Counted from the first letter of the stretch, positions 1 to 13,820 are shown. The stretch: 14,922 nucleotides of DNA from a virus (UHGV-0216241), one strand, 5' to 3'. Program-made: numbers and translations. Notes: generated from the sequence alone by a model not told the origin.

Positions 1-1755
1 AGATTGTACCGTAGTTCTTGTAGCTGATGATTGAGCAAAACGTATTATACCTAAGTTAGTACGTGCTGCTGCTGCCGTTGTAGCACCTGTACCACCATTG
101 GCAATAGGTAATACAGAACTTGTAGTAATGGATTCCATCCATGCAGTCCATGTACCACTATTGTATACGCGTGACCAACTACGTGACCCATTATGTGCCA
201 TATATACCTGTACACAACCTTCTACTCCATTTGCACCTGTTTGGTATACTTGCAAACAACCGGCTGTTTGTGATGGATAATTACGTGTAGTTAATGCGTT
301 AGCACTACCTGATTGCATATAAAAACCAGCTTTAGTGCCGCCTAATGTATTTAGATCCTCGGTAGTTAGTGTTGAAAAATTAGTATATGTTGCACTCAAA
401 TTAGCCCTAGCTGCTGCGGCAGTGCGAGCACCAGTACCGCCCTGACCAACTTCCAACGCTGTGGATAGAGATAATTTTGGCATAGTTACCGTTTTATCAA
501 TAGTGCTGTAAGTTAGAATATTAGGGCCGGATGTAGTTTCTTCGTGGAAACGGAAAGTGTTAGCATCTAATACTACCTGTATTTTATTTGGCGTGTCAGT
601 CTGTGAAAATGTTAGCGTAGGTGCTGCACTTTCTAAAAGTAGTGGATAACTTGCAGTAGGTTTAAAGGTTGCTACGTTGAAGTTATTAGTACCAGACCAT
701 GTATTCACCCCCGCCCCTAATAATGGAACTGTACTACCGGATGTACCGATATTATATGTTGCTGCGGTTCCTAGTCCTAAGTTAGTACGTGCTGTTGCTG
801 CCGTAGTTGCACCTGTACCGCCATTGGTGATAGGAATAATATCAAAATTTGCCGCACCTTTAATACCTAGTACGGTTTTTGCTGCTGCTACATCAGTTAA
901 ATCAGAAAGGTTACTAGCTGCTTTCAACTGTGCATCATTTGTTACATTTCCTAGTCCTACATCTGATTTAGTAATAGTAATATCTGCATTTAGTGCTTTA
1001 CCATTAATCTTACGTGTAATTGGTACATACTGATCACTAATCTGAGTTGCAGTAAGTATACGTGTCCATGCTGTATTTTGGTTCTTTGCATAGATTGCCA
1101 ATGTACCGGATTTAGTCATTGCAATACTGGAGAATGTACCATTATCAATAAGGCCAATTCCCATCATATCCGCACTAGCTGGATTATCTATGCGTGCTGC
1201 TGGTACTTTGATAAAACTGTTGCCATCTGGTAACTGTGGTTCGTACTGAGGTACTACGCCATTAGAGCCTACGCCATATGATCCTACAACTAGTCCGGTA
1301 CTCAATGGTGCTTGACCATCGCGTACTAGAACGTCGGTAGGGGTAAAGGTATATGTTTTAGTAACTACTGCGTCTTTATCACCAGCTAGACGAGCGGAAC
1401 TAATCATACCATTCACCATACTGTAGGAGATGATACCATCAGTTACGGCGTACTGTAGCGTTAGTTGGAACTCGGTCTGATCTTCGGTTGCTTGGTCTAA
1501 AAATGCGTGAGCGGTGCAATCTGGTACGTAGTTTACAACGATATCTACATTGTTTACGTTCTGTTCTGCTAATAGTTTCTCTGAAAATTCACTGTTATAT
1601 ACTTCAATAGTTTGTACTTGGCTATCAATACCGAATGAAGGCATCGCCGCCAATTCATTTACTAGTTCATTCCCTGCGTTATCGGGGATACGGTTCGCGG
1701 TGTCGTCATTATAAAATAATTTAAATCCACTCCCTGTAAAAATTTGATCTGCCAT
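1..1755 (-). CDS. Tail-fibre-like structural protein, 5'-partial (C-terminus lies beyond the window start); three internal copies of a GGTGA-TAA-AR-NLG repeat
   Basis: Minus-strand frame is open from ATG at 1755 to the window edge in every segment I hand-translated; it is absent from the ORF track because no stop falls inside the window. AGGAA Shine-Dalgarno sits ~8 nt upstream. The protein begins MADQIFTGSGFKLFYNDD and contains QGGTGARTAAAARANL, NGGTGATTAATARTNLGLG and NGGTGATTAAAARTNLG, which match my recollection of the tail-fibre repeat class. Lies directly downstream of the head genes. Confidence 0.6.
   Translation of the reverse strand, partial: MADQIFTGSGFKLFYNDDTANRIPDNAGNELVNELAAMPSFGIDSQVQTIEVYNSEFSEKLLAEQNVNNVDIVVNYVPDCTAHAFLDQATEDQTEFQLTLQYAVTDGIISYSMVNGMISSARLAGDKDAVVTKTYTFTPTDVLVRDGQAPLSTGLVVGSYGVGSNGVVPQYEPQLPDGNSFIKVPAARIDNPASADMMGIGLIDNGTFSSIAMTKSGTLAIYAKNQNTAWTRILTATQISDQYVPITRKINGKALNADITITKSDVGLGNVTNDAQLKAASNLSDLTDVAAAKTVLGIKGAANFDIIPITNGGTGATTAATARTNLGLGTAATYNIGTSGSTVPLLGAGVNTWSGTNNFNVATFKPTASYPLLLESAAPTLTFSQTDTPNKIQVVLDANTFRFHEETTSGPNILTYSTIDKTVTMPKLSLSTALEVGQGGTGARTAAAARANLSATYTNFSTLTTEDLNTLGGTKAGFYMQSGSANALTTRNYPSQTAGCLQVYQTGANGVEGCVQVYMAHNGSRSWSRVYNSGTWTAWMESITTSSVLPIANGGTGATTAAAARTNLGIIRFAQSSATRTTVQS
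50..840 (-). repeat. Intragenic repeat units of the tail-fibre-like gene
   Basis: DNA segments ~50-130 and ~760-840 are visibly similar (cctaagttagtacgtgctg...gcacctgtacc...ccattgg), with a third, more diverged copy near 420-470. All encode the GGTGA-TAA-AR-NLG peptide repeat. Confidence 0.6.
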
Positions 1756-1768
1756 CTTTTAATTCCTT

Positions 1769-2161
1769 TTATTTTAAAGTTGCTACAATATTTATTGCAA
1801 AAGATAGCGATTGATAACCAGTTGATGGATCTGTTACTAGTTCACTGTCTGCTACGTCATAACTATGAAGTTGTACACCATTATTACCAAATTCCATGAT
1901 TGTATTAGTACGGAAGTAATCGAAAATAGTACCGAAGGTGTCAGCGGGTAAATTTATTGAAGGTTCTGGTACTAATAGGAATTGAAATGTAAAGTTACCC
2001 ATTTGATTCTGATTATTGTAGTTTACAGATTGGTAGGTTTGATTAGTTGAAACGAGAATAAAGAGATCACGCCCTGCTGCAATATTCATTGCCTTTCTAA
2101 TTGGCATGATATTATTTAAACTGTCTCTAATAGTTTTCTGTACTTGTGTTAGTAGATTCAT
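1769..2161 (-). CDS. Small virion protein, probable head completion or head-tail connector (hypothetical)
   Basis: ORF-track entry 1769..2218; I prefer the internal ATG at 2161 (MNLLTQVQ...), which abuts the upstream stop (TAATATG) and avoids a 56-nt overlap. Position is immediately after the capsid gene. Function is inferred from synteny only. Confidence 0.45.
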   Translation of the reverse strand: MNLLTQVQKTIRDSLNNIMPIRKAMNIAAGRDLFILVSTNQTYQSVNYNNQNQMGNFTFQFLLVPEPSINLPADTFGTIFDYFRTNTIMEFGNNGVQLHSYDVADSELVTDPSTGYQSLSFAINIVATLK

Positions 2162-2162
2162 A

Positions 2163-2483
2163 TTACCACCCGTAATTATTAATTGTAGATGGTCTAATGA
2201 ATACTTCACTAACACCACTTAAATCATTATAGATATTGTATACAGTGTAGTTAGTACCCTGTACGCCTACTACGGAATCAATAGCGATACTGTAAGTAGA
2301 TAGGTCATCAGTCTTTACTGATAGAAATGTTTCTGTACTTTCTACTAGCCCTTCAGTACCACTATCTACGACTACGGGGTGATGATCTACGATTGCCGTA
2401 AATCTCGCCCCGTTAATTGTGATAGGTTCACCAAAGGCATTTAGAAAAGTAGAATCAATTTGATTGCTAGTAAAATGCCTCAT
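2163..2483 (-). CDS. Small virion protein, probable head-tail adaptor or head completion (hypothetical)
   Basis: 106-aa ORF starting 12 nt after the stop of the capsid gene, same strand, tightly packed. Function is inferred from position only. Confidence 0.45.
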   Translation of the reverse strand: MRHFTSNQIDSTFLNAFGEPITINGARFTAIVDHHPVVVDSGTEGLVESTETFLSVKTDDLSTYSIAIDSVVGVQGTNYTVYNIYNDLSGVSEVFIRPSTINNYGW

Positions 2484-2495
2484 AGTGTTTTATCC

Positions 2496-4388
2496 TTATG
2501 GTTTTAGTTGTAGTTGTACAAATGCTTCCTCGTGTGCGATAGCTACATCTAGGTATTGGAAACTACGAATTGCAATAGTTTGTGCTGCACGGTAGGTAGT
2601 ATCATCAAAATCTAGTTCTTGGCCTTCATTCCAGTTAGCAAAGATTAGCTCAGAGAAATCACCGATTAGAATGGTATCTGCTGCTACGAAAGTAGATTCA
2701 ATTACACGTACTTCGTCATTCAACCACATGTCATAACGATGACCTGCTACCATTGCTACGGCTGCGGTGTTATTCAATACTGCGGTTTGACGTAGTTTTG
2801 CAAGCATAGAAGGATGCACGATAGCTACACAACGATTAATATCAACGTTTTTAGCGGAGATAGCTTCGATTGCTGCCTGTACGTCTGCTTCTGATACTTG
2901 ACCAGATACTGCGGTTTGTTTTACTGGTACAGTAGTAGCGATTTGTGCAAATACTGCGGATTCTAGACCGTTAGAGCATTGGCGTAGTAGCTCGTCGGTG
3001 ACGTAACGTTCGGTAGCTGCGTTGCTTAGTAGCATTGCTTTAGTGATTTTGATACCTGCTGCGAACATGCGAGGCTTTAGAGTGATTTTATCGAAATCAT
3101 TACGACCATCATCTACCGCCTCATCTTCTGCGTAGAATTTAGCGGTAGGAGTCATACCTTTAGAACGTGGGATAGAGAAATTGCCACGTCCGGCAAGCCC
3201 TCCGAACACGGTAACATCAAGTTGACCTAGTACAGTTTGAGCGAGTAGTTGACGAATATAGCTGTCTGCTAGTTCTTCTTTTACAAGACCCGCCGCTGTC
3301 ACGGTTGAAGTGGTATCAGCGGTGCTACGTACCATTGCGTTTAGATCTGCATTATAACCGCGAGCACCTTTTTCGAAAGATTCTAGATCGTGTGCTTCAC
3401 CTTTTAGACTGCGTAGACCTTCGTTAATTAGAGATTTCTTTTCCATTTTTTTGATATCCTTATCAATTGATTTATTATCTGTATTTAGTGAGCGTTTAAA
3501 GTCTTCTACGCTTACACCGTTTTTAATTGCTTCTTCTGTACTAACGCCTAGTACCGAAGAAATAGATTGAAGTTCGCGTACACGCTTATCTTCTACTTCT
3601 TTATTTATGCTTTCCTGAATATCAGTTACTGCAATAGAACGTTCTTCTACTAATTCAGGTTGTACTTCCTGTACTTCCTCAATTACTTCCGGTTCTTCTA
3701 CTACTTCTACTGATTCTTCCGGTACTGGTACTTCTTCTTCGATTACTTCGGCTTGTACTTCTTCTTGTTGTACTTCCTCAATAACTTCAACTTCATGTAC
3801 TAGTTCTTCTTTTTGTTCTGGTTCCATTTGGGGTTGATCCTCTAAAGTAATTTCATCATTACTATTTAGTGATCTTCCCACACCTACGCTATTGTCTGCC
3901 GGAGTGGATACGCTAGATACTTCGTAGGGTTGCCATTTTGAAACGATTAGATCATTACCGTCTAGGTAGTAATCTAGAATGTTATAACCTACGGATACTT
4001 TAGGGCGAATACCTTCTACGATCATACCGAAGATAGTATTTGCAGTACCTAAAGCACTAAAACGTACAGTAGCACGACATACCTTATCCATATCTACGCG
4101 AGCATTTTCAACTATACCAACTTGACGCATTGCATCATGTTCTACTAGTACAGGGGCACCGTCATTAAGACGGCTTAAATCCACGTTCTCAGGACTACAT
4201 AAAAGGATCTCATTATAGAGAGTCCCTTTAATATCGCGTACTACTGGAACTTCACTTGCAAAAGAGAGTTCTACCGTTCTGTCAGCTTCATCAATTGCAT
4301 TATTGATTTGCGTTATATTGATCGCCCTCGTCTGGTTCTTGTTCAATTCCATTTTCTTTATTTTCCTTGTTGATTTCTTCCATGACAA
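2496..4388 (-). CDS. Prohead protease - acidic linker/scaffold - HK97-fold major capsid protein fusion
   Basis: 630-aa ORF. The N-terminus (LSFASEVPVVRD...APVLVEHD) resembles HK97-type prohead protease motifs. The middle is a Glu/Val-rich low-complexity block (EEVQQEEVQAEVIEEEVPVPEE...). The C-terminal ~300 aa has an HK97-like capsid character. Lies directly downstream of the portal. The start is uncertain (ATG 4388 or 4352); both overlap the portal 3' end. Confidence 0.7.
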   Translation of the reverse strand: MSWKKSTRKIKKMELNKNQTRAINITQINNAIDEADRTVELSFASEVPVVRDIKGTLYNEILLCSPENVDLSRLNDGAPVLVEHDAMRQVGIVENARVDMDKVCRATVRFSALGTANTIFGMIVEGIRPKVSVGYNILDYYLDGNDLIVSKWQPYEVSSVSTPADNSVGVGRSLNSNDEITLEDQPQMEPEQKEELVHEVEVIEEVQQEEVQAEVIEEEVPVPEESVEVVEEPEVIEEVQEVQPELVEERSIAVTDIQESINKEVEDKRVRELQSISSVLGVSTEEAIKNGVSVEDFKRSLNTDNKSIDKDIKKMEKKSLINEGLRSLKGEAHDLESFEKGARGYNADLNAMVRSTADTTSTVTAAGLVKEELADSYIRQLLAQTVLGQLDVTVFGGLAGRGNFSIPRSKGMTPTAKFYAEDEAVDDGRNDFDKITLKPRMFAAGIKITKAMLLSNAATERYVTDELLRQCSNGLESAVFAQIATTVPVKQTAVSGQVSEADVQAAIEAISAKNVDINRCVAIVHPSMLAKLRQTAVLNNTAAVAMVAGHRYDMWLNDEVRVIESTFVAADTILIGDFSELIFANWNEGQELDFDDTTYRAAQTIAIRSFQYLDVAIAHEEAFVQLQLKP

Positions 4389-5796
4389 TAACCGGATCGT
4401 ATCCCATCTCCGAAATTACCATTGCCTTACTCTTTAAACCGTTATCAATTGCTAATACTTCGGTTTGAAGGTCTTTATATGGATCTAGGGAGATTTGACG
4501 CGTCTGTACATATTGTGCATGAGTCAATTTATTAAAATCACTAAAATTTAAATTGCTTAATGTACTACTATTTAGCATTGCAGATTTTAGCCATGCAATA
4601 TAAAGAGGTTTCAGTACAGATACAATTAAAGCATTAGTACGGCTTTTAAATGTTGATTGCTGTAATTTATCAGTTAACTTTGCAGCACTGAATGAAGCAT
4701 TGCTAGTATCAGAAGTTAGAGATTGTTTTGTAATATCTAATCCCATTGCAATCATCATCATTTGGTTATCAATAAACTCTTGTATACCGTCGGTAGTCTG
4801 AGATGGGTTTACTGTTTTAATATCCTGACCTGCCTGTAGTTCTACGATTGCAGCCGGATTTAGATAGTCCTGGTCATAGTACGATACACTATCATCAGTC
4901 AGTAGTTGTACATCATCGCTATCGGGGTTAGTGATAAAGGCCATTGCGGACGCCGCAACCTTACGGGAAGTAATTGCTGCCGCCATAAATTCCTCTAACT
5001 CTTTTAACTTCTCAGTACCGGAATGTACGTCTGGTATCCCGCGTTGCTGTGTTGGGTAGTCCTGTTGAAAGAGATGTAGGATCTCATCTGCTGGTACTCG
5101 TTCACGCTCACCAATCATATAGTTATACATGATAGGATTGTAACGCGTTACCCAATAGGCTACGGGGCGATTTGTATTAATATCAAATTCAATACCATTA
5201 CTGATAAAGTTTCCCGACGGTAGTAACTGGTTCTCATAGGTAGAGATACGCATTGAATCGATAATCTCGATCTGTGGTAGTTCACCTGGCTTACTGTGAA
5301 TACGTACGAAGCAATCGCCATCTACTGAACGGGTACGTTCAACTAGACGTTGAAAGGTACTGATATCTAGAGTACCGCAACGTGAAAAGGCTTTAGGATC
5401 TTCGGCCCATGCATAGAACGCATCTTCAATTTGTTTATCGATTGACTGGTTAACTTCTTCGTTATCAGAGCTATGAGTACAAGGACGAATATATAGGCCA
5501 TCTGCACCTGTTACGCCTGCACTATTCGTACTGACATATTTCTTTACAATACCGTTCTTAATTGATAATTCACGACTAACGGCGACCATTACGGGTAGAG
5601 TACGGTTAATGATTGCGTTAATATTGCCAGCCTGATTACCGCCAGTGAAGCCAAATGAGATAACAGGGCTAGATGATCCCAAATTAAGGGAAGTCATTGC
5701 ACGTTTCATCGGGTTATTCTTCATTAGCTTCACTGGCTTCTGTACTAATACCTTCTGTTTTGGTTCTTCTACTTTCTTTTTATTCCATCCGAACAT
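4300..5796 (-). CDS. Portal protein (lambda gpB-like)
   Basis: 498-aa ORF between the terminase and the protease/capsid gene, with size and position typical of a portal. Its start overlaps the upstream stop as TAATG, indicating translational coupling. Confidence 0.75.
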   Translation of the reverse strand: MFGWNKKKVEEPKQKVLVQKPVKLMKNNPMKRAMTSLNLGSSSPVISFGFTGGNQAGNINAIINRTLPVMVAVSRELSIKNGIVKKYVSTNSAGVTGADGLYIRPCTHSSDNEEVNQSIDKQIEDAFYAWAEDPKAFSRCGTLDISTFQRLVERTRSVDGDCFVRIHSKPGELPQIEIIDSMRISTYENQLLPSGNFISNGIEFDINTNRPVAYWVTRYNPIMYNYMIGERERVPADEILHLFQQDYPTQQRGIPDVHSGTEKLKELEEFMAAAITSRKVAASAMAFITNPDSDDVQLLTDDSVSYYDQDYLNPAAIVELQAGQDIKTVNPSQTTDGIQEFIDNQMMMIAMGLDITKQSLTSDTSNASFSAAKLTDKLQQSTFKSRTNALIVSVLKPLYIAWLKSAMLNSSTLSNLNFSDFNKLTHAQYVQTRQISLDPYKDLQTEVLAIDNGLKSKAMVISEMGYDPVIVMEEINKENKENGIEQEPDEGDQYNANQ

Positions 5797-6287
5797 TATC
5801 TAGATCTCCTAAATGTAGTAATTGATTTGATAGGACATCCAGTATTGAATCCTTTCATATCCGAAAGTAAATCATTTGCACGACTGACATATACAGGGCG
5901 TAGTTTCATAAGTATTTCACTACTTTCATATGTTAATGATTTATTTTGAATTGATTGACTTAATACACCACCGCCCTTAATTCTATCCATGATGATCTGG
6001 TCAATATCTTTGATGATTTGCATCAGGTCATTATATTCTGATGCCTTTGAGGTTGGATCTACTACTTCGAATTGTTGTACTCCATACGCTTTAGGACTAT
6101 TGATGATTGCAGTCCAGATACCCGCTACCCAATTACTAGTATCAATATCGGGGAACGGGTATGTATAGGAGGTCTTTACCCCATTGGGATCAATCAAGTC
6201 TACTTCTGACCCAGCGGGGTAATCGAATGTAATAGTCTCGCCTTTGAAGATATCGCCTTTTAGAGTTACTTTGCGAACTATTGCCAT
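5796..6287 (-). CDS. Hypothetical head-module protein (occupies the position of lambda gpW between terminase and portal)
   Basis: 163-aa ORF, tightly packed between the terminase large subunit stop (6299) and the portal start (5796). No recognisable motif. Confidence 0.5.
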   Translation of the reverse strand: MAIVRKVTLKGDIFKGETITFDYPAGSEVDLIDPNGVKTSYTYPFPDIDTSNWVAGIWTAIINSPKAYGVQQFEVVDPTSKASEYNDLMQIIKDIDQIIMDRIKGGGVLSQSIQNKSLTYESSEILMKLRPVYVSRANDLLSDMKGFNTGCPIKSITTFRRSR

Positions 6288-6298
6288 TTTATTTTTCC

Positions 6299-8218
6299 TT
6301 ATTTAAAGAAGCCACCACCTTTACGCGGCCTTATTACTCGTTTTGGAGTTGGCTTAGTTGGTGTTTCTTCTGTATTTACTTCTTTATTTAGTCCTGCTTT
6401 CTCTTTTTGTTTCGCGTTGTATTCCCTTAGTTGTCGGAATGGTTGACTACCTAATTTAGATAGATACCACTGGAAACATATAAGCGAGTAATTAAGACAA
6501 TCAAGGGTTTCATTTCTCGCCGAACTAACTTTCTTCACCCATACCCAGGCACCAGCCTTTATTACTCGCTTCTCGGAAGTAAGCTGAATAAAGTAATCAT
6601 CCGGTACTGAATGACTGAAATGTATTTGTACTTCCTTACTATTTTCACTATCGGATACAGCACGGTTGAGTAATTGACGGACGTTTGATTTGCCTAAGTT
6701 TACGTTAAGGTTAATCAGGGAGTGACCACCAGCGGTACTACCTTTGAATAATGGGTTAGAGTTAGACGTACCACCCTTGATAGGTTTAAAGATAGTAGAA
6801 TTACTGCAATAGCGATATACGGTACTAGTTGCGTTGCCGTTACTACTATCGACGAATCCAGCTAATACTTTAAGTGGTTTACCCGAACGTGTTTTCAATG
6901 GGGCGTTAGCAAAGGCCGTTAGCTTATTCCATGCTGGGGCTTCGATCTTCGTACAGTCAATTGCGTATATACTGCGATGATCTAAAACATAGAGATTCTT
7001 CTCACTTACTCCTAGTGTACTTATCTCCAATCTGTCAAGCTGCTGGTCAACGCCGAATACCACCCCTAGTACGTCATCGGGGATATTATTGATATCTATT
7101 TCACTATCTCTTAGGTTCTCCAATAATACTAAATCATGGTCGGTATTCTCTTTATCAATATATGGCAGTCCTAGTACGTTGTTATAGAATGATGCCAGGT
7201 CAAATGTATAATGTGCTTCTGCAAAGTCTGCTACAATTGATTTTATGGAATTGATGGGGGAATAGAGTCTAGATATGTGATAGCCCATTATATCCGTTAC
7301 TTCCGGTGCTGTTACTATCCATTCACCTTTACGGATCATTCGTACACGTTCTGCTTCTGTTATTACATTATTACACTTAGGACATTCTAGCCTTGCAGTG
7401 TCTGCATCTGGAATACGACGGCGACCACCTTCAATAATTTTCCATTCGAATTTAACGTTTTCGAATACCATTTCGTGTGAGTGGTTACAGTGGGGGCAAG
7501 GTACATAAAACTTCTGTTTATTACTTTGTTCGTACTGTTGGGTAATCAGGTCATGCTCATCTAGTGGAGTAGAACAACACATAATCAGGGGGTTACTGAA
7601 TGCTTTCGTTCTCTGTTCTGCCAGCTTCAAGGGATTGCCTTCTTCGCCGTCGGCGTTGACATTGGATATCTCATCCAAAAATACGCGAGGGGCCGTTAGA
7701 CCACGTAGTGAAGCACTACTACCCAATGACAGGAAGTAGGTAAACGTTCCATCTAAATTTTGTTGTGTCTTGTCATTGTTCGTATAGTTCTTGTCGTTCT
7801 TATTACTAACGAGATTTTTCAGTACCGAACATGCTTCGATGACTGCTTGCCATTTACCAGTCCTAAATTTACTAGTAGTACCACCAGTAGCACCACCAAA
7901 GATCATGTTACTAGGATCATTGGCTAGGAAGTAGTACATACTATTCTGTAGTACCGTTGTTTTGAGGAGTTGAGCACTGCTCATGAGCACCACCTTACGG
8001 ACGCGTGGATTTACGATATCGTTGATGGGTTTATGCTGAAAGGCGAATAATTTGACACGCTGCCCCTGTAGTTCGCCGTCCGGGAAGACTAGATTACTCT
8101 CTACCCATTCAGCGGGTAGTTGTTTCTTCGGAGGTAGGATCGACTTCGCCGCCCTCGTTAGTATCTTCATCATCTTCTGGTAGTTGGTCTTCATATGTTC
8201 CCTCATATTCATAGCCAC
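6299..8218 (-). CDS. Terminase large subunit (GpA-type, cos phages)
   Basis: 639-aa ORF, the size of lambda gpA. Has a Walker-A-like FGGATGGTTSK, two Cys pairs (CPHCNH...CPKCNN) and sits directly after the small-subunit gene. The start may be an internal Met (8194, 8173 or 8170); any choice overlaps the small-subunit gene. Confidence 0.8.
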   Translation of the reverse strand: MAMNMREHMKTNYQKMMKILTRAAKSILPPKKQLPAEWVESNLVFPDGELQGQRVKLFAFQHKPINDIVNPRVRKVVLMSSAQLLKTTVLQNSMYYFLANDPSNMIFGGATGGTTSKFRTGKWQAVIEACSVLKNLVSNKNDKNYTNNDKTQQNLDGTFTYFLSLGSSASLRGLTAPRVFLDEISNVNADGEEGNPLKLAEQRTKAFSNPLIMCCSTPLDEHDLITQQYEQSNKQKFYVPCPHCNHSHEMVFENVKFEWKIIEGGRRRIPDADTARLECPKCNNVITEAERVRMIRKGEWIVTAPEVTDIMGYHISRLYSPINSIKSIVADFAEAHYTFDLASFYNNVLGLPYIDKENTDHDLVLLENLRDSEIDINNIPDDVLGVVFGVDQQLDRLEISTLGVSEKNLYVLDHRSIYAIDCTKIEAPAWNKLTAFANAPLKTRSGKPLKVLAGFVDSSNGNATSTVYRYCSNSTIFKPIKGGTSNSNPLFKGSTAGGHSLINLNVNLGKSNVRQLLNRAVSDSENSKEVQIHFSHSVPDDYFIQLTSEKRVIKAGAWVWVKKVSSARNETLDCLNYSLICFQWYLSKLGSQPFRQLREYNAKQKEKAGLNKEVNTEETPTKPTPKRVIRPRKGGGFFK

Positions 8219-8663
8219 CGATTTCTTCTAGCTGGCGGTCTATCTTGTCCTGTAATTTAATTTTTAATTCTAATGCATCCTGTGATTCGAATAATTCAAC
8301 ATAACTTGACGCGGGAATACTTCTTAGTACCTGTCGTAGTTGGTAGAAGTATTGGGATAAAGTTTGCTGTACTACTGCTACCGGAATTAGTTCTCCCGAT
8401 TGCTGGCGTAGTTCTAATTCTTTTAGGTCTGCTTCTGCTTCTAGTTTGCGTAGTGTGGCTTTATGGATCATTCCCTTCACATCACCATTACGCATTGGTT
8501 CGATTACGTTTGCTAGTAACCAGTCGTCTACTAATTTTTTAGGCCAGGTAATATCCAGTCCTTTGCCAGACCAGATACGGGATACAGTAGAATGCTCTAC
8601 GCCGAATCGGTCGGCGATTTCTTGCCATGAATATCTGGTTCCATCGTCTTTATTCTTTGCCAT
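8109..8663 (-). CDS. Terminase small subunit (HTH DNA-binding N-terminus, acidic C-tail)
   Basis: 184-aa ORF immediately upstream of the large subunit. The N-terminus has a helix-turn-helix-like stretch (SWQEIADRFGVEHSTVSRIW) and the C-terminus is acidic (EDDEDTNEGGEVDPTSEE). AGGAAA Shine-Dalgarno lies 7 nt upstream of ATG 8663. Confidence 0.75.
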   Translation of the reverse strand: MAKNKDDGTRYSWQEIADRFGVEHSTVSRIWSGKGLDITWPKKLVDDWLLANVIEPMRNGDVKGMIHKATLRKLEAEADLKELELRQQSGELIPVAVVQQTLSQYFYQLRQVLRSIPASSYVELFESQDALELKIKLQDKIDRQLEEIGGYEYEGTYEDQLPEDDEDTNEGGEVDPTSEETTTR

Positions 8664-8978
8664 GTGATTTCCTATTCACTTATTATTCACTTTCCATTGA
8701 TTGGTATTTTCTATCTATTTCGGTACTGATAGGTTTTATCTATAAATTTGTTTGTTTTATGTAAAATTTCTCACGTATTTTTATTATAACTCGCGGCCAA
8801 ACTTCGCATAGTTTGGCATATTCAGGAGAACCTACCGAAAGTCAAGGGAGTGATTCCATTTTTTTATCTTTTTTTTGATATAAAGCACAAATTGCACAAA
8901 ATCTTGATAGCTTCTACCTATCAGTACCGAAGGATACCATCATCCTATTATTCACTGTTTATGCATTGTTTATGCAAT
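8664..8978. other. Candidate packaging-site region (cos/pac), non-coding, upstream of the terminase small subunit
   Basis: ~315 bp with no credible ORF. Contains a 16-bp inverted repeat (8719-8734 TTCGGTACTGATAGGT and its reverse complement at 8916-8931), a perfect 8-bp-stem hairpin (8796-8817), two T8 tracts (8858-8865, 8869-8876) and a direct repeat TTTATGCA x2 (8953-8971). Location matches cos/cosB in lambda-like phages. Confidence 0.45.
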
Positions 8979-9365
8979 CTACTTGAGTATCACCATATTA
9001 CTAACGATTACATCACAACGATAAGAGATAGGCAGACCATCTACGGTACGGTACTGTAGGATCTCGTCGCGTAGTTCTCTTAGTCTGTTTAGGTGTGGTA
9101 GTTCGCTACCGTTGAATCTATCTAGTTCTCGTATGGGGTAATTAGTACGGCCTATGGTGAAGCGTGAGTAGTTTAATGTAATGTATTTATACTTAAGCGT
9201 TAGTGTATAGGTATCTATGAATAGCTCGTAACCGTCCTGTGTGATGATATGAGCGGTTATTAGCTTATCCTTGCGTGATGGTATGTATCCTGATTCCTGT
9301 CGGCCTGTGGTGCTTTCTATGGCCTTATACGTTCCATCAGGGAAGTGTAGGTAGATTGTATTCAT
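8979..9365 (-). CDS. Hypothetical protein (128 aa)
   Basis: ORF with an AGGAG Shine-Dalgarno upstream of ATG 9365. No recognisable motifs. Confidence 0.55.
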   Translation of the reverse strand: MNTIYLHFPDGTYKAIESTTGRQESGYIPSRKDKLITAHIITQDGYELFIDTYTLTLKYKYITLNYSRFTIGRTNYPIRELDRFNGSELPHLNRLRELRDEILQYRTVDGLPISYRCDVIVSNMVILK

Positions 9366-9371
9366 GGTGGG

Positions 9372-9398
9372 ATACTCCTATTGCATGTATAGGAGTAT
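9372..9398 (-). promoter_or_regulatory. Shine-Dalgarno-sequestering hairpin in the 5' leader of the 128-aa gene
   Basis: Perfect 10-bp inverted repeat ATACTCCTAT (9372-9381) and ATAGGAGTAT (9389-9398) with a 7-nt loop. On the minus-strand mRNA the AGGAG Shine-Dalgarno lies in the 3' arm, paired to ACUCCU. Confidence 0.45.
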
Positions 9399-9410
9399 TT
9401 AGGCAGGAAT

Positions 9411-9437
9411 AAAAAAGCCCACTGTGATTAGTGGGCT
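9411..9437 (-). terminator. Rho-independent terminator after the 232-aa gene
   Basis: Minus-strand hairpin with stem AGCCCACT / AGTGGGCT (9416-9423 and 9430-9437), a 6-nt loop, followed on the minus strand by a run of five U then AUU (9411-9415 on plus). Begins 7 nt after the stop at 9444. Confidence 0.7.
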
Positions 9438-9443
9438 AGTGGA

Positions 9444-10142
9444 TTAGTAAGAATGTATATAATGTGAGATTGGTATAGTACCGCCAGTGTAGGTACTAAT
9501 TTCTAATTCCTTCGCTACTAAATCAAGTATATCCAAGTGTTGCTGTATATCTTGATGTGGTGTTCCATTATTATCTAATAGGTTATGGGGAAAGAGTATA
9601 CTAATTTGTGCTATTTCTCCTACCATAGAAAGATCATTACCATGAATGTAATTTATTTTACGTTCATCGTGGTTATGTTCATGGTATATAGTGAACTTCT
9701 CATTACCTACATCATTTAGGCGACCATAACGCCAGCTAACTTGAAAGATACTACCCATATCATGTACAGTAATTGAATCGTCATTACTACCATCGATAGT
9801 AACATCAACAATATAATTACCGTGATTGATGCGGTAGTCTTCGATGCTTCCCGTTGGTAGATTTGGTTCGGATAGTTCTAGTACGGTTTCATTTTCATCA
9901 AAGCGATAGGAGGCTAATTCTATTGGTAGCATATTGTAAGTATCTAATTCATTATAGCTAATCATGCGGGTAGATTCATTCCATGTATTACCCATGAGTA
10001 CACCAACAAAATTACCGTTATGATCGCGGTGATCACCATCACCCATAATAAATGGAGTGTTACGCGTATACATTACAATCTTACCCGCACGACGAACAAC
10101 AATACCGTTAGTATGTTTAGTGAGAGTTACATCAAAAATCAT
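9444..10142 (-). CDS. Hypothetical His/Asp-rich protein (232 aa), moron-like cassette gene
   Basis: ORF with a GAGGAA Shine-Dalgarno 6 nt upstream and its own terminator. Has His-rich patches (GDGDHRDHNG, HEHNHDERK). No family recognised. Confidence 0.6.
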   Translation of the reverse strand: MIFDVTLTKHTNGIVVRRAGKIVMYTRNTPFIMGDGDHRDHNGNFVGVLMGNTWNESTRMISYNELDTYNMLPIELASYRFDENETVLELSEPNLPTGSIEDYRINHGNYIVDVTIDGSNDDSITVHDMGSIFQVSWRYGRLNDVGNEKFTIYHEHNHDERKINYIHGNDLSMVGEIAQISILFPHNLLDNNGTPHQDIQQHLDILDLVAKELEISTYTGGTIPISHYIHSY

Positions 10143-10164
10143 TATACTTTCCTCATTAGATTTT

Positions 10165-10187
10165 ATTATAGACCACTGTGATTAGTG
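10165..10187 (-). promoter_or_regulatory. Putative promoter -10 (TATAAT) plus a 15-bp repeat element upstream of the 232-aa gene
   Basis: Minus-strand TATAAT at 10170..10165, ~22 nt upstream of ATG 10142; the -35 is poor. The adjacent 15-mer CCACTGTGATTAGTG (10173-10187) is identical to 9419-9433 inside the downstream terminator. Confidence 0.3.
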
Positions 10188-10199
10188 TGTGTATTATTA

Positions 10200-10421
10200 T
10201 TAGTTAGTATCGAACAATGGCTTTATTAGTGGTATCTCTTCTTCCCCTTCAATTGGTTTACCGTGATGATCTGCTACGCGTACTATCGTATTTTCATACG
10301 GATTAATACTATAATAGTTTTGATGTTCTTCGGTACTAACAATGATACGTTCAATGATCATATCACTATCGCTCACTGAATCAGTGAGATTACGGATTGC
10401 ATCTAATAATTTCTCTAACAT
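10200..10421 (-). CDS. Hypothetical small protein (73 aa)
   Basis: ORF tightly packed (9-nt gap) downstream of the secreted-protein genes on the same strand. Confidence 0.5.
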   Translation of the reverse strand: MLEKLLDAIRNLTDSVSDSDMIIERIIVSTEEHQNYYSINPYENTIVRVADHHGKPIEGEEEIPLIKPLFDTN

Positions 10422-10430
10422 GTTTACCCC

Positions 10431-10817
10431 TTATTTTATTTTAACGCAGTTTTGAAAGTAGTAATTACGAGTATCAGATCTCAATAAGAAGATAAAAGTA
10501 ATATCGTTTTGCTCTTTACTTCCCATTGTTGCAAGGAAGTATCGCTGCCTATCATTATCATAAGCCATTGTCATTGAATCATTAGATTCTATTGGTCCGG
10601 TGGCGTGAGTCATTGCACCGAAGTTAAGGATAAAACCATCACTATTAACTTTAGCGTGACCTGCACCAGAATAAGAAGATTTTTCTACTGGAGTATCACC
10701 CAGCATTTCAACTACTTTCACATCACATTGATACAATCCCTGCTCTGGTAGAGAGTGAGTGTTAGCCAGTACCGAAGGAGATACTAACAGTAATGCAGAT
10801 ACGATAACCTTTTTCAT
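10431..10817 (-). CDS. Secreted small protein with cleavable signal peptide, two conserved Cys (paralog 1)
   Basis: N-terminus MKKVIVSALLLVSPSVLA is a classic Sec signal peptide. AAGGAA Shine-Dalgarno 5 nt upstream. Shares architecture and motifs (LPxxGLYxC ... FxNC) with the adjacent gene. Confidence 0.65.
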   Translation of the reverse strand: MKKVIVSALLLVSPSVLANTHSLPEQGLYQCDVKVVEMLGDTPVEKSSYSGAGHAKVNSDGFILNFGAMTHATGPIESNDSMTMAYDNDRQRYFLATMGSKEQNDITFIFLLRSDTRNYYFQNCVKIK

Positions 10818-10826
10818 TTCTATTCC

Positions 10827-11219
10827 TTATTCAATAATACAATTGGAGAAGTTCAAAAATACGGGATTATTCTCATTGCTGACCATATACTGTGTTTTAC
10901 CATTGATTGCACTAATAATAATATCGTACTGGTCAGTATCTACGGCATAGGCCATCAGGCGACCGCTTTTAAGTTTTGAAACAGGGCTGAATGAAATATT
11001 CATATCCCTAAACTTCACACTAACAGCACGGTTATCAATACTCACATAACCAGTCATACCATAATAACCAGTCTTTACTACTCGCTTTCCTACCTGTTCC
11101 CACGATTCAACACCGCAACGATATAAACCATCATCAGGGAGTATTACATTTACTGCCAGTACCGAAGGGGCTACTAACAGTAATGCAGACAGTACAATCT
11201 TTTTCATAAATTCATCCAT
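10827..11219 (-). CDS. Secreted small protein with signal peptide (paralog 2); true start probably ATG at 11207
   Basis: MKKIVLSALLLVAPSVLA signal peptide begins at the fifth codon. The mature region has the same Cys spacing as the downstream paralog. Confidence 0.6.
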   Translation of the reverse strand: MDEFMKKIVLSALLLVAPSVLAVNVILPDDGLYRCGVESWEQVGKRVVKTGYYGMTGYVSIDNRAVSVKFRDMNISFSPVSKLKSGRLMAYAVDTDQYDIIISAINGKTQYMVSNENNPVFLNFSNCIIE

Positions 11220-11325
11220 TCGGGATTATCTACTTTATCAGAATCAATGGCATTGTTGATGCCAGATAATGACAGTGTTTTTGATTACGGCGACTGCAAT
11301 TTAATAAGTAGGGTTAATGTATTTT

Positions 11326-11331
11326 ATTATA
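11326..11331 (-). promoter_or_regulatory. Possible extended -10 promoter element (TGaTATAAT) for the secreted-paralog operon
   Basis: Minus-strand TGATATAAT in the 11208-11386 intergenic gap; no good -35. Confidence 0.25.
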
Positions 11332-11386
11332 TCATAGTAATATGCAGTCCCCATAACTAAAAGTACGGCAAATATTGTTTTCTTCA

Positions 11387-11767
11387 TCACAGATTATCGT
11401 CTATATAATTAGTTGGTTTCGATAACTCAAATTCTGTACCGTAATTATTTGAACGATCAACTATCTTAGTGGTGTTTTTGTGGGGGCCGTGGGCTTTATG
11501 TTCTTCGAAGCTATGAATATTTGTAAGTCGGTCGGCGGCAATAATACAGCTACCAGTAGATGGGCGTTCTTCACCCAATAGCATAGGCTGACAATCACTA
11601 CTGAATTGTGGGCGATACTCTTTACCACCATTTACGGGGAATAATACTAGTGTACGACCGTTAATATCACCTACTACGGCTTCATTCATAAAAGCAGGCG
11701 TTATAGTAGTACAGCCAGTAGTGATTGTAGCCGTAGCGAGTACAGCTAGGGTAAAGAGATTTTTCAT
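11387..11767 (-). CDS. Exported protein, possible lipoprotein (126 aa)
   Basis: N-terminus MKNLFTLAVLATATITTGC is a hydrophobic signal sequence ending in Cys (imperfect lipobox TTGC). AAGGA Shine-Dalgarno 7 nt upstream. A perfect TATAAT (11819..11814) lies upstream. Confidence 0.6.
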   Translation of the reverse strand: MKNLFTLAVLATATITTGCTTITPAFMNEAVVGDINGRTLVLFPVNGGKEYRPQFSSDCQPMLLGEERPSTGSCIIAADRLTNIHSFEEHKAHGPHKNTTKIVDRSNNYGTEFELSKPTNYIDDNL

Positions 11768-11833
11768 TAGTAAATCCTTGTAGTGATTGTGTGAGGTGAT
11801 GTTTGATGTGAATTATTATAGCTATGATATTTA

Positions 11834-11870
11834 GTAATAGCTACTACTTTATTTGTGTAGTAGCTATTAT
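11834..11870 (-). promoter_or_regulatory. Stem-loop with 12-bp perfect inverted repeat between the 227-aa gene and the exported-protein gene; terminator or operator
   Basis: AATAGCTACTAC (11836-11847) and GTAGTAGCTATT (11857-11868) with a 9-nt loop. Sits right after the stop at 11876 and overlaps the -35 region of the TATAAT at 11814-11819. There is no clean U-tract on the minus strand. Confidence 0.4.
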
Positions 11871-11875
11871 TCTTC

Positions 11876-12559
11876 TTATACTACCTTATAGGCTTTAGTA
11901 ACAAGCTCTTTGAAGTCTTGCTCGTCGGCCTGTTTAGGATACTGCTGCTTGTACTCGGCGTAGTATTCCTGTGCTTTCGCGTTCATCTTCCCTTTCTGGT
12001 TTAGATGGAACTCATGACCGTTCCACTTCGCATTAAGCGGGTATTTTTTGCGATAGTCCTCACTATACGCCCGTAAAAACTCGTCAACGTCCGATAGTTC
12101 GGGATTCTTCTTAACCAACTGAATGTATACTTCATCCTTGAGTAATGCCGCTGGTAACTTCTTATTGATTACATTATAGGTTCTTCTTTCGTCCTTCTTG
12201 CTATCAACTATGACTACTTCGAATATCTTATTGCCGTTCGGCTTCGATGCTTTTTGTGGTATGGAAGCAGGAGAAGATACAGCCAGTGTAGAAAGCAGTT
12301 CCTCTACACTAGAGAAGCTACCAGACTCTTGTACAAGTGATTCTAATAGTTTCTTAGCTTCGTTTAGTCGCTCGGTACGTAGTGTGCTTACATAGTCCTT
12401 CACTTCGCCCAGGCGTTGAATGAGAGTGTCTAGTTCTTCTTCGTTGACGTTTGCCAGTGCATTGCGGCCTGTTGCGTCGGCAGTCAACATACCTACATGA
12501 AAATCATCATTAAGAATCGTACTGATCATTTTTGCGGTAATGCTTTTAATGCTTCCCAT
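11876..12559 (-). CDS. Hypothetical protein (227 aa), coiled-coil-like N-terminal half and Lys/Tyr-rich C-terminal half
   Basis: ORF with a GAGG Shine-Dalgarno 7 nt upstream of ATG 12559. No family recognised. Confidence 0.55.
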   Translation of the reverse strand: MGSIKSITAKMISTILNDDFHVGMLTADATGRNALANVNEEELDTLIQRLGEVKDYVSTLRTERLNEAKKLLESLVQESGSFSSVEELLSTLAVSSPASIPQKASKPNGNKIFEVVIVDSKKDERRTYNVINKKLPAALLKDEVYIQLVKKNPELSDVDEFLRAYSEDYRKKYPLNAKWNGHEFHLNQKGKMNAKAQEYYAEYKQQYPKQADEQDFKELVTKAYKVV

Positions 12560-12747
12560 AGTACAGCCTCATTTGGTTTTAACAGTAACTGAGTACAATC
12601 GGTTAGTTTAACTATATTTGCAAGTGGGATCTCCTTCAAAGTGTTTATCATCTCACTGGTAAGACCAAATTCACCTAGTAGATCTTCTTCGGAAAGTTTC
12701 CGTACTGTATCTATATAGAGTACGTTTAGCTCATGTAGATCATTCAT
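12526..12747 (-). CDS. Hypothetical small protein (73 aa)
   Basis: ORF whose start overlaps the upstream gene's stop (ATGA at 12744-12747), indicating translational coupling. Confidence 0.5.
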   Translation of the reverse strand: MNDLHELNVLYIDTVRKLSEEDLLGEFGLTSEMINTLKEIPLANIVKLTDCTQLLLKPNEAVLWEALKALPQK

Positions 12748-12941
12748 AGCTTAATGTTGACGCGTTTTCTAGTAAGTAAGCTCAATAGTGCTTCGTTATA
12801 GGTAGTGTGCCACTTCTTACCATCACTAAAAGGCTTGTTGATGTGTCGGGGATGCTTAGACATAGTGACCGCCCCTACCTTTCGGTCGTGATCGTCGAAA
12901 ACTTCGGTTATAAGTCCACCTGCAATACAACTAATACGCAT
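12744..12941 (-). CDS. Hypothetical small protein (65 aa)
   Basis: ORF in an operon-like array; weak GGGA Shine-Dalgarno. Confidence 0.45.
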   Translation of the reverse strand: MRISCIAGGLITEVFDDHDRKVGAVTMSKHPRHINKPFSDGKKWHTTYNEALLSLLTRKRVNIKL

Positions 12942-13022
12942 GTAAAGATCCCAGCAATGAAGAAAAAGAAATTTGCAGCCGCAAGGTAAGTAAAGGTTAA
13001 TTTTTTTTCATAGAGTGTCCAT

Positions 13023-13063
13023 ATTAACACTACTAGTACATTTTCGGTACTAGTAGTGTTAAT
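13023..13063. repeat. Perfect 17-bp inverted repeat (palindrome) with 7-nt spacer
   Basis: ATTAACACTACTAGTAC (13023-13039), spacer ATTTTCG, then GTACTAGTAGTGTTAAT (13047-13063). Located 4 nt after the stop of the 97-aa gene. No adjacent U-tract on the minus strand. The spacer carries the recurrent TTCGGTACT motif. Confidence 0.6.
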
Positions 13064-13066
13064 TGA

Positions 13067-13360
13067 TTAATGTACGTTAGTAACTTCTTCGGATACTACT
13101 TCTAGTAATGAAGTGAAAGCACGTTCACCATCGAATCGGGCAATAGTGATCTTATCGGTTACACTCTTGGGTAAATTGATGTTCTTTTCCCAATGGAACA
13201 AGCCACCAGACATAAGAAACATACTGAATAATTCACGCTCATTATGACGGGAACTAATTACTATATGAAACATTCCCGTTACACGATTATCAATCTCGTT
13301 GATCTTGAATCCTAAATCATGTGCCTTAATGACCAAATCAGTAGATACACCCTTAGACAT
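13067..13360 (-). CDS. Hypothetical protein (97 aa)
   Basis: ORF with a GGGAG Shine-Dalgarno 9 nt upstream; its start overlaps the stop of the upstream 28-codon ORF. Confidence 0.55.
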   Translation of the reverse strand: MSKGVSTDLVIKAHDLGFKINEIDNRVTGMFHIVISSRHNERELFSMFLMSGGLFHWEKNINLPKSVTDKITIARFDGERAFTSLLEVVSEEVTNVH

Positions 13361-13439
13361 TTTCGATACTCCCTACGATTAGTAACATGGTTATGATGAC
13401 TACAAATAGTACATGCTCTTTAGTGATAGTGAACGTCAT
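13353..13439 (-). CDS. Unannotated 28-aa hydrophobic peptide (MTFTITKEHVLFVVIITMLLIVGSIENV), predicted single transmembrane helix
   Basis: Hand-translated; missing from the ORF track, presumably below its length cutoff. GAGGA Shine-Dalgarno 6 nt upstream of ATG 13439. Stop overlaps the next gene's start by 8 nt. A promoter-like element lies upstream. Confidence 0.4.
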   Translation of the reverse strand: MTFTITKEHVLFVVIITMLLIVGSIENV

Positions 13440-13468
13440 GTTGTGTCCTCGTTGTATTGACACCACTG

Positions 13469-13497
13469 ATACTAGAATCATTAGTTACTAACGTCAA
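13469..13497 (-). promoter_or_regulatory. Putative sigma70-like promoter for the 28-aa/97-aa operon
   Basis: Minus-strand -35 TTGACG (13497..13492), 17-nt spacer, -10 TAGTAT (13474..13469); ATG at 13439. Confidence 0.4.
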
Positions 13498-13533
13498 CAC
13501 TAGATACTAAAATATTTTATTAGTAGAAAACAC

Positions 13534-13561
13534 TTGATAGTAACTAACAGTAGTGTATACT
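13534..13561 (+). promoter_or_regulatory. Putative sigma70-like promoter for the plus-strand 60-aa gene (divergent from the minus promoter)
   Basis: -35 TTGATA (13534-13539), 16-nt spacer, -10 TATACT (13556-13561). The 10-bp element TAGTAACTAA occurs at 13538-13547 and as an inverted copy at 13481-13490 in the other promoter's spacer. Confidence 0.45.
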
Positions 13562-13601
13562 GTCTTTATTGAAGCAAAACACTACTACGAAGGGATATAT
13601 A

Positions 13602-13787
13602 ATGAATACAGTAACTTACTTAGAACGCGGTAACATCACTGATATCATGGTTAACGATGTATATATGGGGGCAGTAGTAAAAGGTGACGATAACAAATAT
13701 CGTACCGTACATAAGAACAATGCAGAATCTGGTACGTTTACTGCTTTCCACTTCGCAGCGTACCATGTAGAAAAAGCAGTTTGATAG
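13602..13787 (+). CDS. Hypothetical small protein (60 aa), the only plus-strand gene with its own promoter and terminator
   Basis: ATG 13602 preceded by an AGGGA Shine-Dalgarno (13591-13595); this is the internal Met of ORF-track entry 13569..13784. Followed immediately by an intrinsic terminator. Confidence 0.55.
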
Positions 13788-13795
13788 AAACGATG

Positions 13796-13820
13796 AAGCC
13801 CACATTAAGTGGGCTTTTTT
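13796..13820. terminator. Rho-independent terminator for the plus-strand gene, overlapping the 3' end of the convergent minus-strand gene
   Basis: Stem AAGCCCAC / GTGGGCTT (13796-13803 and 13809-13816), 5-nt loop, then a T6 run ending at 13820. The last five codons (TKKPT) and stop of the minus-strand 178-aa gene are encoded within the hairpin and T-tract. Confidence 0.7.

Follow-up and report, generated by a model that had tools for sequence, protein, structure and literature searches.

The segment 9411-10187 of the viral sequence UHGV-0216241 (14,922 nt, analysed as a whole and referred to below as the window) is probably a one-gene accessory cassette, lodged at a recombination hotspot at the terminator of a pre-late operon, with cargo that moves by recombination at a short junction. 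The single cargo gene, F8, starts with ATG and encodes a 232-aa protein on the minus strand (9444-10142, from the ORF call). The locus is a genuine instance of gene shuffling in phages, though a fairly ordinary one, and its junction is a modest variant resembling the promoter-early stem-loop (PeSL) mobile regulatory cassettes of T4-like phages (Arbiol et al. 2010, PMC2839356; Comeau et al. 2014, PMC4122927).

The window belongs to an Escherichia coli prophage of an uncharacterised Enterobacteriaceae family. A protein identical to F8 is encoded in E. coli CP050221.1, where the element (L003, 5500294-5520992) starts with a serine recombinase. Downstream of the cassette on the minus strand lie a 128-aa ORF, a small terminase (PHROG 57, E 2e-19), a GpA-type large terminase, the portal and the capsid genes. 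Among 50,697 sequenced phages the best large terminase match was 37% identical, and a DNA-level search of the same collection with the region matched nothing. The kit of this prophage family comprises a serine recombinase, a GpA-type terminase, a lambda-type portal and an S74-peptidase tail fibre; its viral contigs span 20-33 kb, and for most of its early genes, among them one encoding a 645-aa protein outside the window, there is no matching family.

More than 25 loci, retrieved by anchoring on the small terminase or on the 128-aa ORF (which yielded L019-L033), were compared with the window. The usual gene order was F4, terminator, late junction, 128-aa ORF and small terminase. F4 (73 aa; 10200-10421, minus strand) is the upstream neighbour of the cassette and, according to the slot map, the last gene before the terminator in most relatives; it abuts the terminator in L001/L020, L005-L008, L024-L026 and L029. 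The downstream neighbour, identified by homologue comparison as the first gene past the terminator, is the conserved 128-aa ORF (8979-9365, minus strand), which has homologues of 40-63% identity in L006, L009 and L015 and matches none of the family libraries. RefSeq leaves this ORF unannotated in the close relatives L001 and L002.

The right-hand boundary of the variable site is a conserved late junction, (C)CTAAATACTCCTATAC-N5-7-ATAGGAGT, at 9374-9405 on the minus strand. In the form (C)TAAATACTCCTATA-N-TAGGAGT it precedes the 128-aa ORF in all compared loci, and a zero-mismatch-tolerant scan of 34 sequences found it unmismatched in 30 loci and the window. It is constant even where the flanking proteins are only 35-60% identical. 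The palindrome of this junction overlaps the Shine-Dalgarno of the 128-aa ORF, the first late gene; the junction may serve as a late promoter or an operator, or may form an RNA hairpin that controls translation. In most loci an intrinsic terminator precedes the late junction, often with the AGCCCAC/GTGGGCT stem, and the hairpin and U-run that follow F8 in the window occupy the same position in L001, L005-L009, L015 and L024-L026, whatever the preceding gene. Pseudocitrobacter locus L011, with a 90% identical small terminase, shares nothing upstream of that gene and is uninformative for this site. Beyond the 128-aa ORF, a roughly 315-nt AT-rich non-coding gap (8664-8978) separates it from the small terminase and is where cos of a GpA/Nu1-type packaging system would likely lie; if so, the variable site would be cos-proximal, as in P2 and P4.

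On the early side, just upstream of the cassette, there is a block of secreted accessory proteins, consisting of two tandem paralogues of 128-130 aa with N-terminal signal peptides (10431-10817 and 10827-11219, both minus strand) and an adjoining predicted lipoprotein of 126 aa (11387-11767, minus strand). The number and type of these signal-peptide paralogues vary between relatives. Further upstream, a 73-aa protein (12526-12747, minus strand) gave weak, sub-threshold matches to FlhD (NCBIfam E 0.0018; Pfam FlhD weak) and may be a small transcription factor of the operon.

The 15-mer CCACTGTGATTAGTG has two exact plus-strand matches in the whole window, a downstream copy at 9419-9433 and an upstream copy at 10173-10187 (exact match search), and no third site in the window at up to two mismatches. 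The two copies bracket the minus-strand 232-aa gene, and none of 200 dinucleotide-preserving shuffles contained the 15-mer twice, which confirms the exact direct repeat reported in the sequence-only reading. An ungapped search extended the repeat to 18 nt at 94% identity (9416-9433 and 10170-10187, 754 bp apart), and the exact pair proved to be the core of two copies of a 22-nt hairpin that differ at three stem positions.

The downstream copy lies in junction J2 (9408-9437, minus strand; terminator scan and fold) and is a strong intrinsic terminator on the minus strand. Its hairpin (9416-9437), read on the coding strand from 9437 to 9416, has the stem AGCCCACT / AGTGGGCT and the loop AATCAC followed by a U-run; the stem is 8 bp long, the minus-strand fold has an energy of -13.4 kcal/mol (z -4.8) with the U-run on its 3' side, and hairpin and U-run start 6 nt past the stop codon of the 232-aa gene. 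A strong hairpin thus stands 3' of F8 as first described, but it is not the private terminator it was taken for: because it is conserved in relatives, is present without the gene, and has F4 as the last gene before it in diverged lineages, it must be regarded as the resident terminator of the operon. An Rfam search returned nothing except a Trp_leader match below threshold (25.4 bits; gathering score 41), which we rejected as caused by the terminator hairpin.

The upstream copy lies in junction J1, which runs from the F4 stop codon to the F8 ATG (10143-10199, minus strand; sequence, promoter scan, fold and sister-junction alignment). Compared with the intact hairpin, it carries three stem substitutions and has TATAATAAA in place of the U-run, so that the copy (10170-10191) keeps only 4 bp of stem and folds at -4.0 kcal/mol (z -2.0). 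The conserved leader AATCTAATGAGGAAA follows at 10148-10162 and includes the Shine-Dalgarno GAGGAAA (10148-10154) of the minus-strand 232-aa gene. A Shine-Dalgarno and a TATAAT had been noted at the outset; both are present, the TATAAT at 10165-10170.

Both hairpin copies of the window have the loop AATCAC, whereas other lineages have AATAAA, ACTCAC or AATTAC. Since the loop is variable between lineages, its identity here indicates that the two copies are related by descent or conversion rather than by convergence. This bears on the reading of the two copies as independent terminators, alike through functional constraint, whose bracketing of the gene would have no evolutionary meaning. Terminators with an AGCCCAC/GTGGGCT stem do occur elsewhere, both as a third hairpin in the window (13796-13816) and as another in L010, but the two copies agree in flanking bases and in a 6-nt loop that is under no constraint, the predicted fold of the upstream copy is not that of a functional terminator, and the L001 indel described below maps exactly to the copies, which together make such independence highly improbable. 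The third hairpin has the loop TTAAT and a T-run on the plus strand only, for which reason it probably terminates a small opposite-strand gene at 13569-13784. The AGCCCAC/GTGGGCT stem recurs in terminators across the prophage family.

Two relatives show the site without the gene. In L001 (E. coli NZ_CM151386) and L020 (an IMG/VR contig), whose flanks are 89-95% identical to the window, the F8 gene is absent, a single hairpin is present and the neighbours are the same, the terminator coming immediately after F4 and the 128-aa ORF next; the window is 754 bp longer. Window positions 967-9464 and 10170-13820 both align to L001 and overlap there at 8458-8505, from which it follows that L001 has a single hairpin and that the 754-bp indel is bounded by the repeat. 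The comparison with related genomes that the sequence-only reading had proposed as a check therefore found the expected indel polymorphism at the repeat boundaries, with L001 and L020 collapsing to one hairpin. The L001 hairpin is intact and has the loop AATAAA.

Other relatives carry different cargo at this position. As far as the cargo ATG, over F4, hairpin and leader, the IMG/VR contig L019 matches the window at 97% identity, and its homology with the window restarts at the late junction (window 9403); between these points it has F32-hairpin-leader-F34 (1188 bp) in place of the F8 gene and hairpin of the window (735 bp). The products of F32 (157 aa) and F34 (218 aa) are unrelated to F8. Both genes also occur in L002 (E. 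coli NZ_CM135810), behind a different upstream neighbour. In five E. coli contigs (L036-L040) an 84%-identical variant of F34 (F34') is inserted inside the terminator T-run, with the layout GGGCTTTT / cassette / TTTATTCCTGCC, and no hairpin follows the F34 cassettes on the 3' side. A further locus, L027 (IMG/VR UViG_2639763134_000009, about 1165-1290), carries an insert of roughly 90 nt that separates the T-run of the terminator from the late junction and has its own 13-bp inverted repeat (AAAGATGACAAAT ... ATTTGTCATCTTT) and T-run; this insert may be a small RNA gene or the remnant of a lost cargo. At least five states of the site, from hairpin to late junction, can thus be distinguished: empty, F8, F32+F34, F34' and the 90-nt insert. 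The description of the region as a moron-like inserted cassette is borne out by the absence of the gene between conserved neighbours in L001 and L020 and by the other cargo in L019, L002 and L036-L040. The cassette has a GC content of 0.35-0.385 against 0.32-0.40 in the flanks and hence shows no compositional trace of import.

Identical short direct repeats flanking an insertion that is absent from relatives could also be produced by target-site duplication, if a transposon-like or site-specific mobile element had carried in the 232-aa gene. The cassette, however, has no transposase, integrase or terminal inverted repeats, and its sole ORF has no signature of a nuclease, recombinase or transposase. 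Apart from the serine integrase at the prophage end, the element has no recombinase. Moreover, the repeated unit is the resident terminator, with imperfect similarity extending past the 15-mer, and the other cargo of the same site shows no such duplication, so that this origin is very improbable.

A second alternative concerns the direction of the event. The F8 gene may be ancestral here and may have been lost from L001 and L020 by deletion between the direct repeats (by slippage or a RecA-independent route), without any insertion. Exact 15-nt repeats at a distance of 754 bp are well suited to deletion, the F8 family belongs to this prophage family and the GC content of F8 equals that of its flanks; nevertheless we consider such a loss unlikely. 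The product of a deletion would be a hybrid hairpin whose 5' arm is crippled, but the hairpin of L001 is intact with the loop AATAAA; the arrangement of F4 followed by the terminator is found in at least four diverged lineages; and where the F8 gene is embedded in an operon it sits elsewhere, between F17 and F1. We favour a gain in the window lineage over a loss in L001 because the L001 hairpin is intact with a different loop and F4-terminator is the common arrangement. The occurrence of the F8 family in the middle of an operon in L005-L009 means that the window arrangement could be a relocation inside this prophage family, or an ancestral state lost in L001. The choice alters the direction of the event only, and not the reading of the region as a cassette at a hotspot.

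Each inserted gene is preceded by a junction of roughly 55 nt, counted from stop codon to ATG. The stop codon lies within an (A)ACTAATAAT-like sequence, which is followed by AGCCCACT-N6-AGTGGGCT, zero to five T, the leader AATCTAA[T/C][G/A]AGGAAA (AATCTAAYRAGGAAA), four to six bases and the ATG. Four such internal junctions, from three or four prophage lineages, are known and were aligned (alignment A6): F4-F8 in the window, F4-F32 in L019, F32-F34 in L019/L002 and F43-F34' in L036. The hairpin and the leader are common to all four, ahead of three unrelated cargo genes. Among 34 sequences (the window and 33 loci) the leader was found only at such junctions, and a diverged copy, AATCTAGCGGGGTAA, has the same position in L036-L040. 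A scan of IMG/VR for hairpin-leader junctions recovered only an already known contig.

Under the preferred reading of a cassette at the terminator hotspot, the window prophage would have received a unit of leader, 232-aa gene and hairpin directly after its hairpin, by which one terminator would have become two copies 754 bp apart. Cargo would enter and leave by recombination between copies of the roughly 55-nt junction, or be exchanged through the junction on one side and the long homology of the late region on the other. Exchange from hairpin to hairpin cannot account for every event: some must instead have been illegitimate insertions at the terminator, since the F34 cassettes have no 3' hairpin and lie within the T-run. 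We infer both the mechanism of recombination and the direction of the event, whether insertion or loss, from these arrangements.

ORFs separated by a conserved imperfect palindrome, with varying cargo, also recall an integron-like cassette array in which the hairpin would be the attC site. No tyrosine integron integrase was found in the element, in which only Resolvase/Recombinase matches were obtained; the hairpin is 22 nt long and has no GTTRRRY core, while attC sites measure 57-141 nt; and only one or two cassettes are present. An integron is accordingly an exceedingly improbable explanation, and junction recombination at the terminator remains our preferred one.

A promoter scan of J1 found a -35 element, TACACA (10188-10193), and the -10 element TATAAT separated by a 17-nt spacer, which together match 10 of the 12 positions of the sigma-70 consensus and lie 22 nt upstream of the ATG. 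The window has no excess of sites of at least 10/12 (5 were observed, compared with 8.0 +/- 2.9 in Markov simulations), and for this reason it is only by its position that this one is called a candidate promoter. At the -10 position the sister junctions have TTTTTA (J1 of L019), TATTCA (J2 of L019) and TTTCAA (L036), and a good -10/-35 pair occurs only in J1 of the window among the four internal junctions. A private promoter for the 232-aa gene is plausible, the candidate being a consensus match limited to the junction of the window lineage.

Because the J1 copy has stem substitutions and no U-run, read-through from the upstream operon is to be expected. Having lost three stem pairs and the U-run, the upstream hairpin would no longer stop transcription, and the 232-aa gene would most likely be read through from the operon upstream; the same changes create the TACACA-17-TATAAT match, from which the gene may also be transcribed. 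The intact downstream copy would still terminate ahead of the late genes. Both read-through and promoter activity at J1 are what we infer from predicted folds and consensus matching.

The F8 protein contains 14 His and no Cys, has a pI of 4.98 and shows no evident N-terminal signal peptide in its translation. By these features it appears to be an acidic cytoplasmic protein, and it represents a rare, prophage-specific family. A search of 5.8 billion protein clusters and 1.84 billion representatives found only four homologue clusters, P0001 (identical), P0002 (51% identity), P0003 (33%) and P0004 (48%), all of which occur in prophages of the window's own family. Searches of IMG/VR for relatives of F8 and F34 added none beyond the known loci, and tblastn of the 50,697 phage records found nothing. 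A dN/dS of 0.12 between the orthologues of L006 and L009 indicates that F8 is a real gene under purifying selection. In L005-L009 the F8 gene is embedded and translationally coupled, with its start overlapping the preceding gene. The L010 copy is solitary, preceded by a terminator and an AT-rich spacer of roughly 360 nt, with an AGCCCAC/GTGGGCT hairpin on its 3' side.

The original statement that the protein matches nothing recognised holds, in that F8 showed no homology to a conserved core phage function and gave, like its neighbours, no match in Pfam, PHROGs, PADLOC or NCBIfam. A profile search of PDB sequences returned noise only (E > 0.2), and the AF2 model, of low confidence (pLDDT 61), had no significant fold match. 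F32 and F34 likewise had no match in PADLOC, Pfam or NCBIfam, libraries in which a new defence system need not be represented. For the proposal that F8 may be an anti-defence factor, no homology to defence or anti-defence proteins was found in the four libraries searched with F8. The further proposal of a His-rich, metal-binding protein was dropped. In the homologue alignment, GDGDHRDHNG and HEHNHDERK both coincide with variable columns that contain gaps, where H38, H41, H154, H156 and H158 align with gaps or other residues, and H186 is the only invariant His (1 of 14). As the His motifs are variable across the four homologue clusters, metal binding is not a property of the family. The residues that are conserved are W137-x-YGRLN143, D117-G-x-N-D121 and G168-N169. 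Within the F8 gene there is a 30-nt direct repeat of 73% identity (window 9806-9835 and 10001-10030), encoding the similar peptides HNGNFVGV and NHGNYIVDV; this is a hint that a beta unit was duplicated within the protein. Our guess, made by analogy with prophage hotspot cargo (PMC9122126) and held with low confidence, is that F8 may be a cytoplasmic factor in phage-host or phage-phage conflict.

Among known systems, the junction is closest in design to PeSLs, for which RB49 has an ORFan between two motifs and phi1 a single motif (PMC2839356), and for which exchange has been attributed to homologous recombination between motifs (PMC2839356; PMC4122927). Here too a composite stop-to-start intergenic motif combines a stem-loop terminator or attenuator with a Shine-Dalgarno and flanks ORFans; an ORFan lies between two motifs in the window and a single motif is found in L001/L020; and in J1 the remnant stem-loop sits between the -35 and -10 elements, as in PeSLs. 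The differences are that the window is from a temperate Enterobacteriaceae prophage rather than a lytic T4-like myovirus, that two or three copies occur at one site instead of dozens across hyperplastic regions, that only one of four junctions has a good promoter, and that the conserved block measures about 55 nt instead of about 100 nt. The cassette works like a PeSL but stands outside the PeSL family.

With morons, as defined in the summary of Cumby et al. 2012 (PMC3594210), of which HK97 gene 15 is a lambdoid example, the cassette shares an extra gene between genes that are adjacent in related phages, an intrinsic terminator 3' and a candidate promoter 5' of it, and a function not needed for the core phage programme. 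It differs in that its GC content is the same as that of its surroundings, that its terminator is a copy from the resident operon and was not imported, that its promoter is a candidate only and that F8 comes from the gene pool of the same prophage family. The structural definition of a moron thus applies to the cassette and the compositional criterion does not. Compared with the variable locus between conserved genes described for P2/P4-type prophages (2022, PMC9122126), the site is likewise a small locus (0-1.2 kb here) of high turnover, between conserved genes just upstream of the packaging genes, with several unrelated alleles among closely related elements; however, PADLOC assigned none of its cargo proteins to a known defence family, it is smaller in extent, and the available genomes are far fewer.

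A bolder version of the preferred reading can be put forward only tentatively, and we find it rather doubtful. It holds that the hairpin-leader junction may be a PeSL-like mobile regulatory element of temperate enterobacterial prophages at a hitherto unnoticed early/late-boundary hotspot, that F8, F32 and F34 may be new factors of phage exclusion or counter-defence, and that the upstream terminator may have been turned into a promoter through three stem substitutions and the change of the U-run to TATAAT.

The locus offers a small, clean example of how temperate phages add or swap single genes without disturbing core operons: insertion takes place at the terminator of an operon, and a short conserved junction provides both homology for recombination and signals for translation. 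If this junction acts like the PeSLs of T4-like phages, the mechanism would apply to small prophages as well as to large lytic phages. Cargo genes could be harvested from short metagenomic contigs with F4, the hairpin and the late-junction palindrome as anchors, and the ORFan cargo proteins are reasonable candidates for phage exclusion or anti-defence screens.
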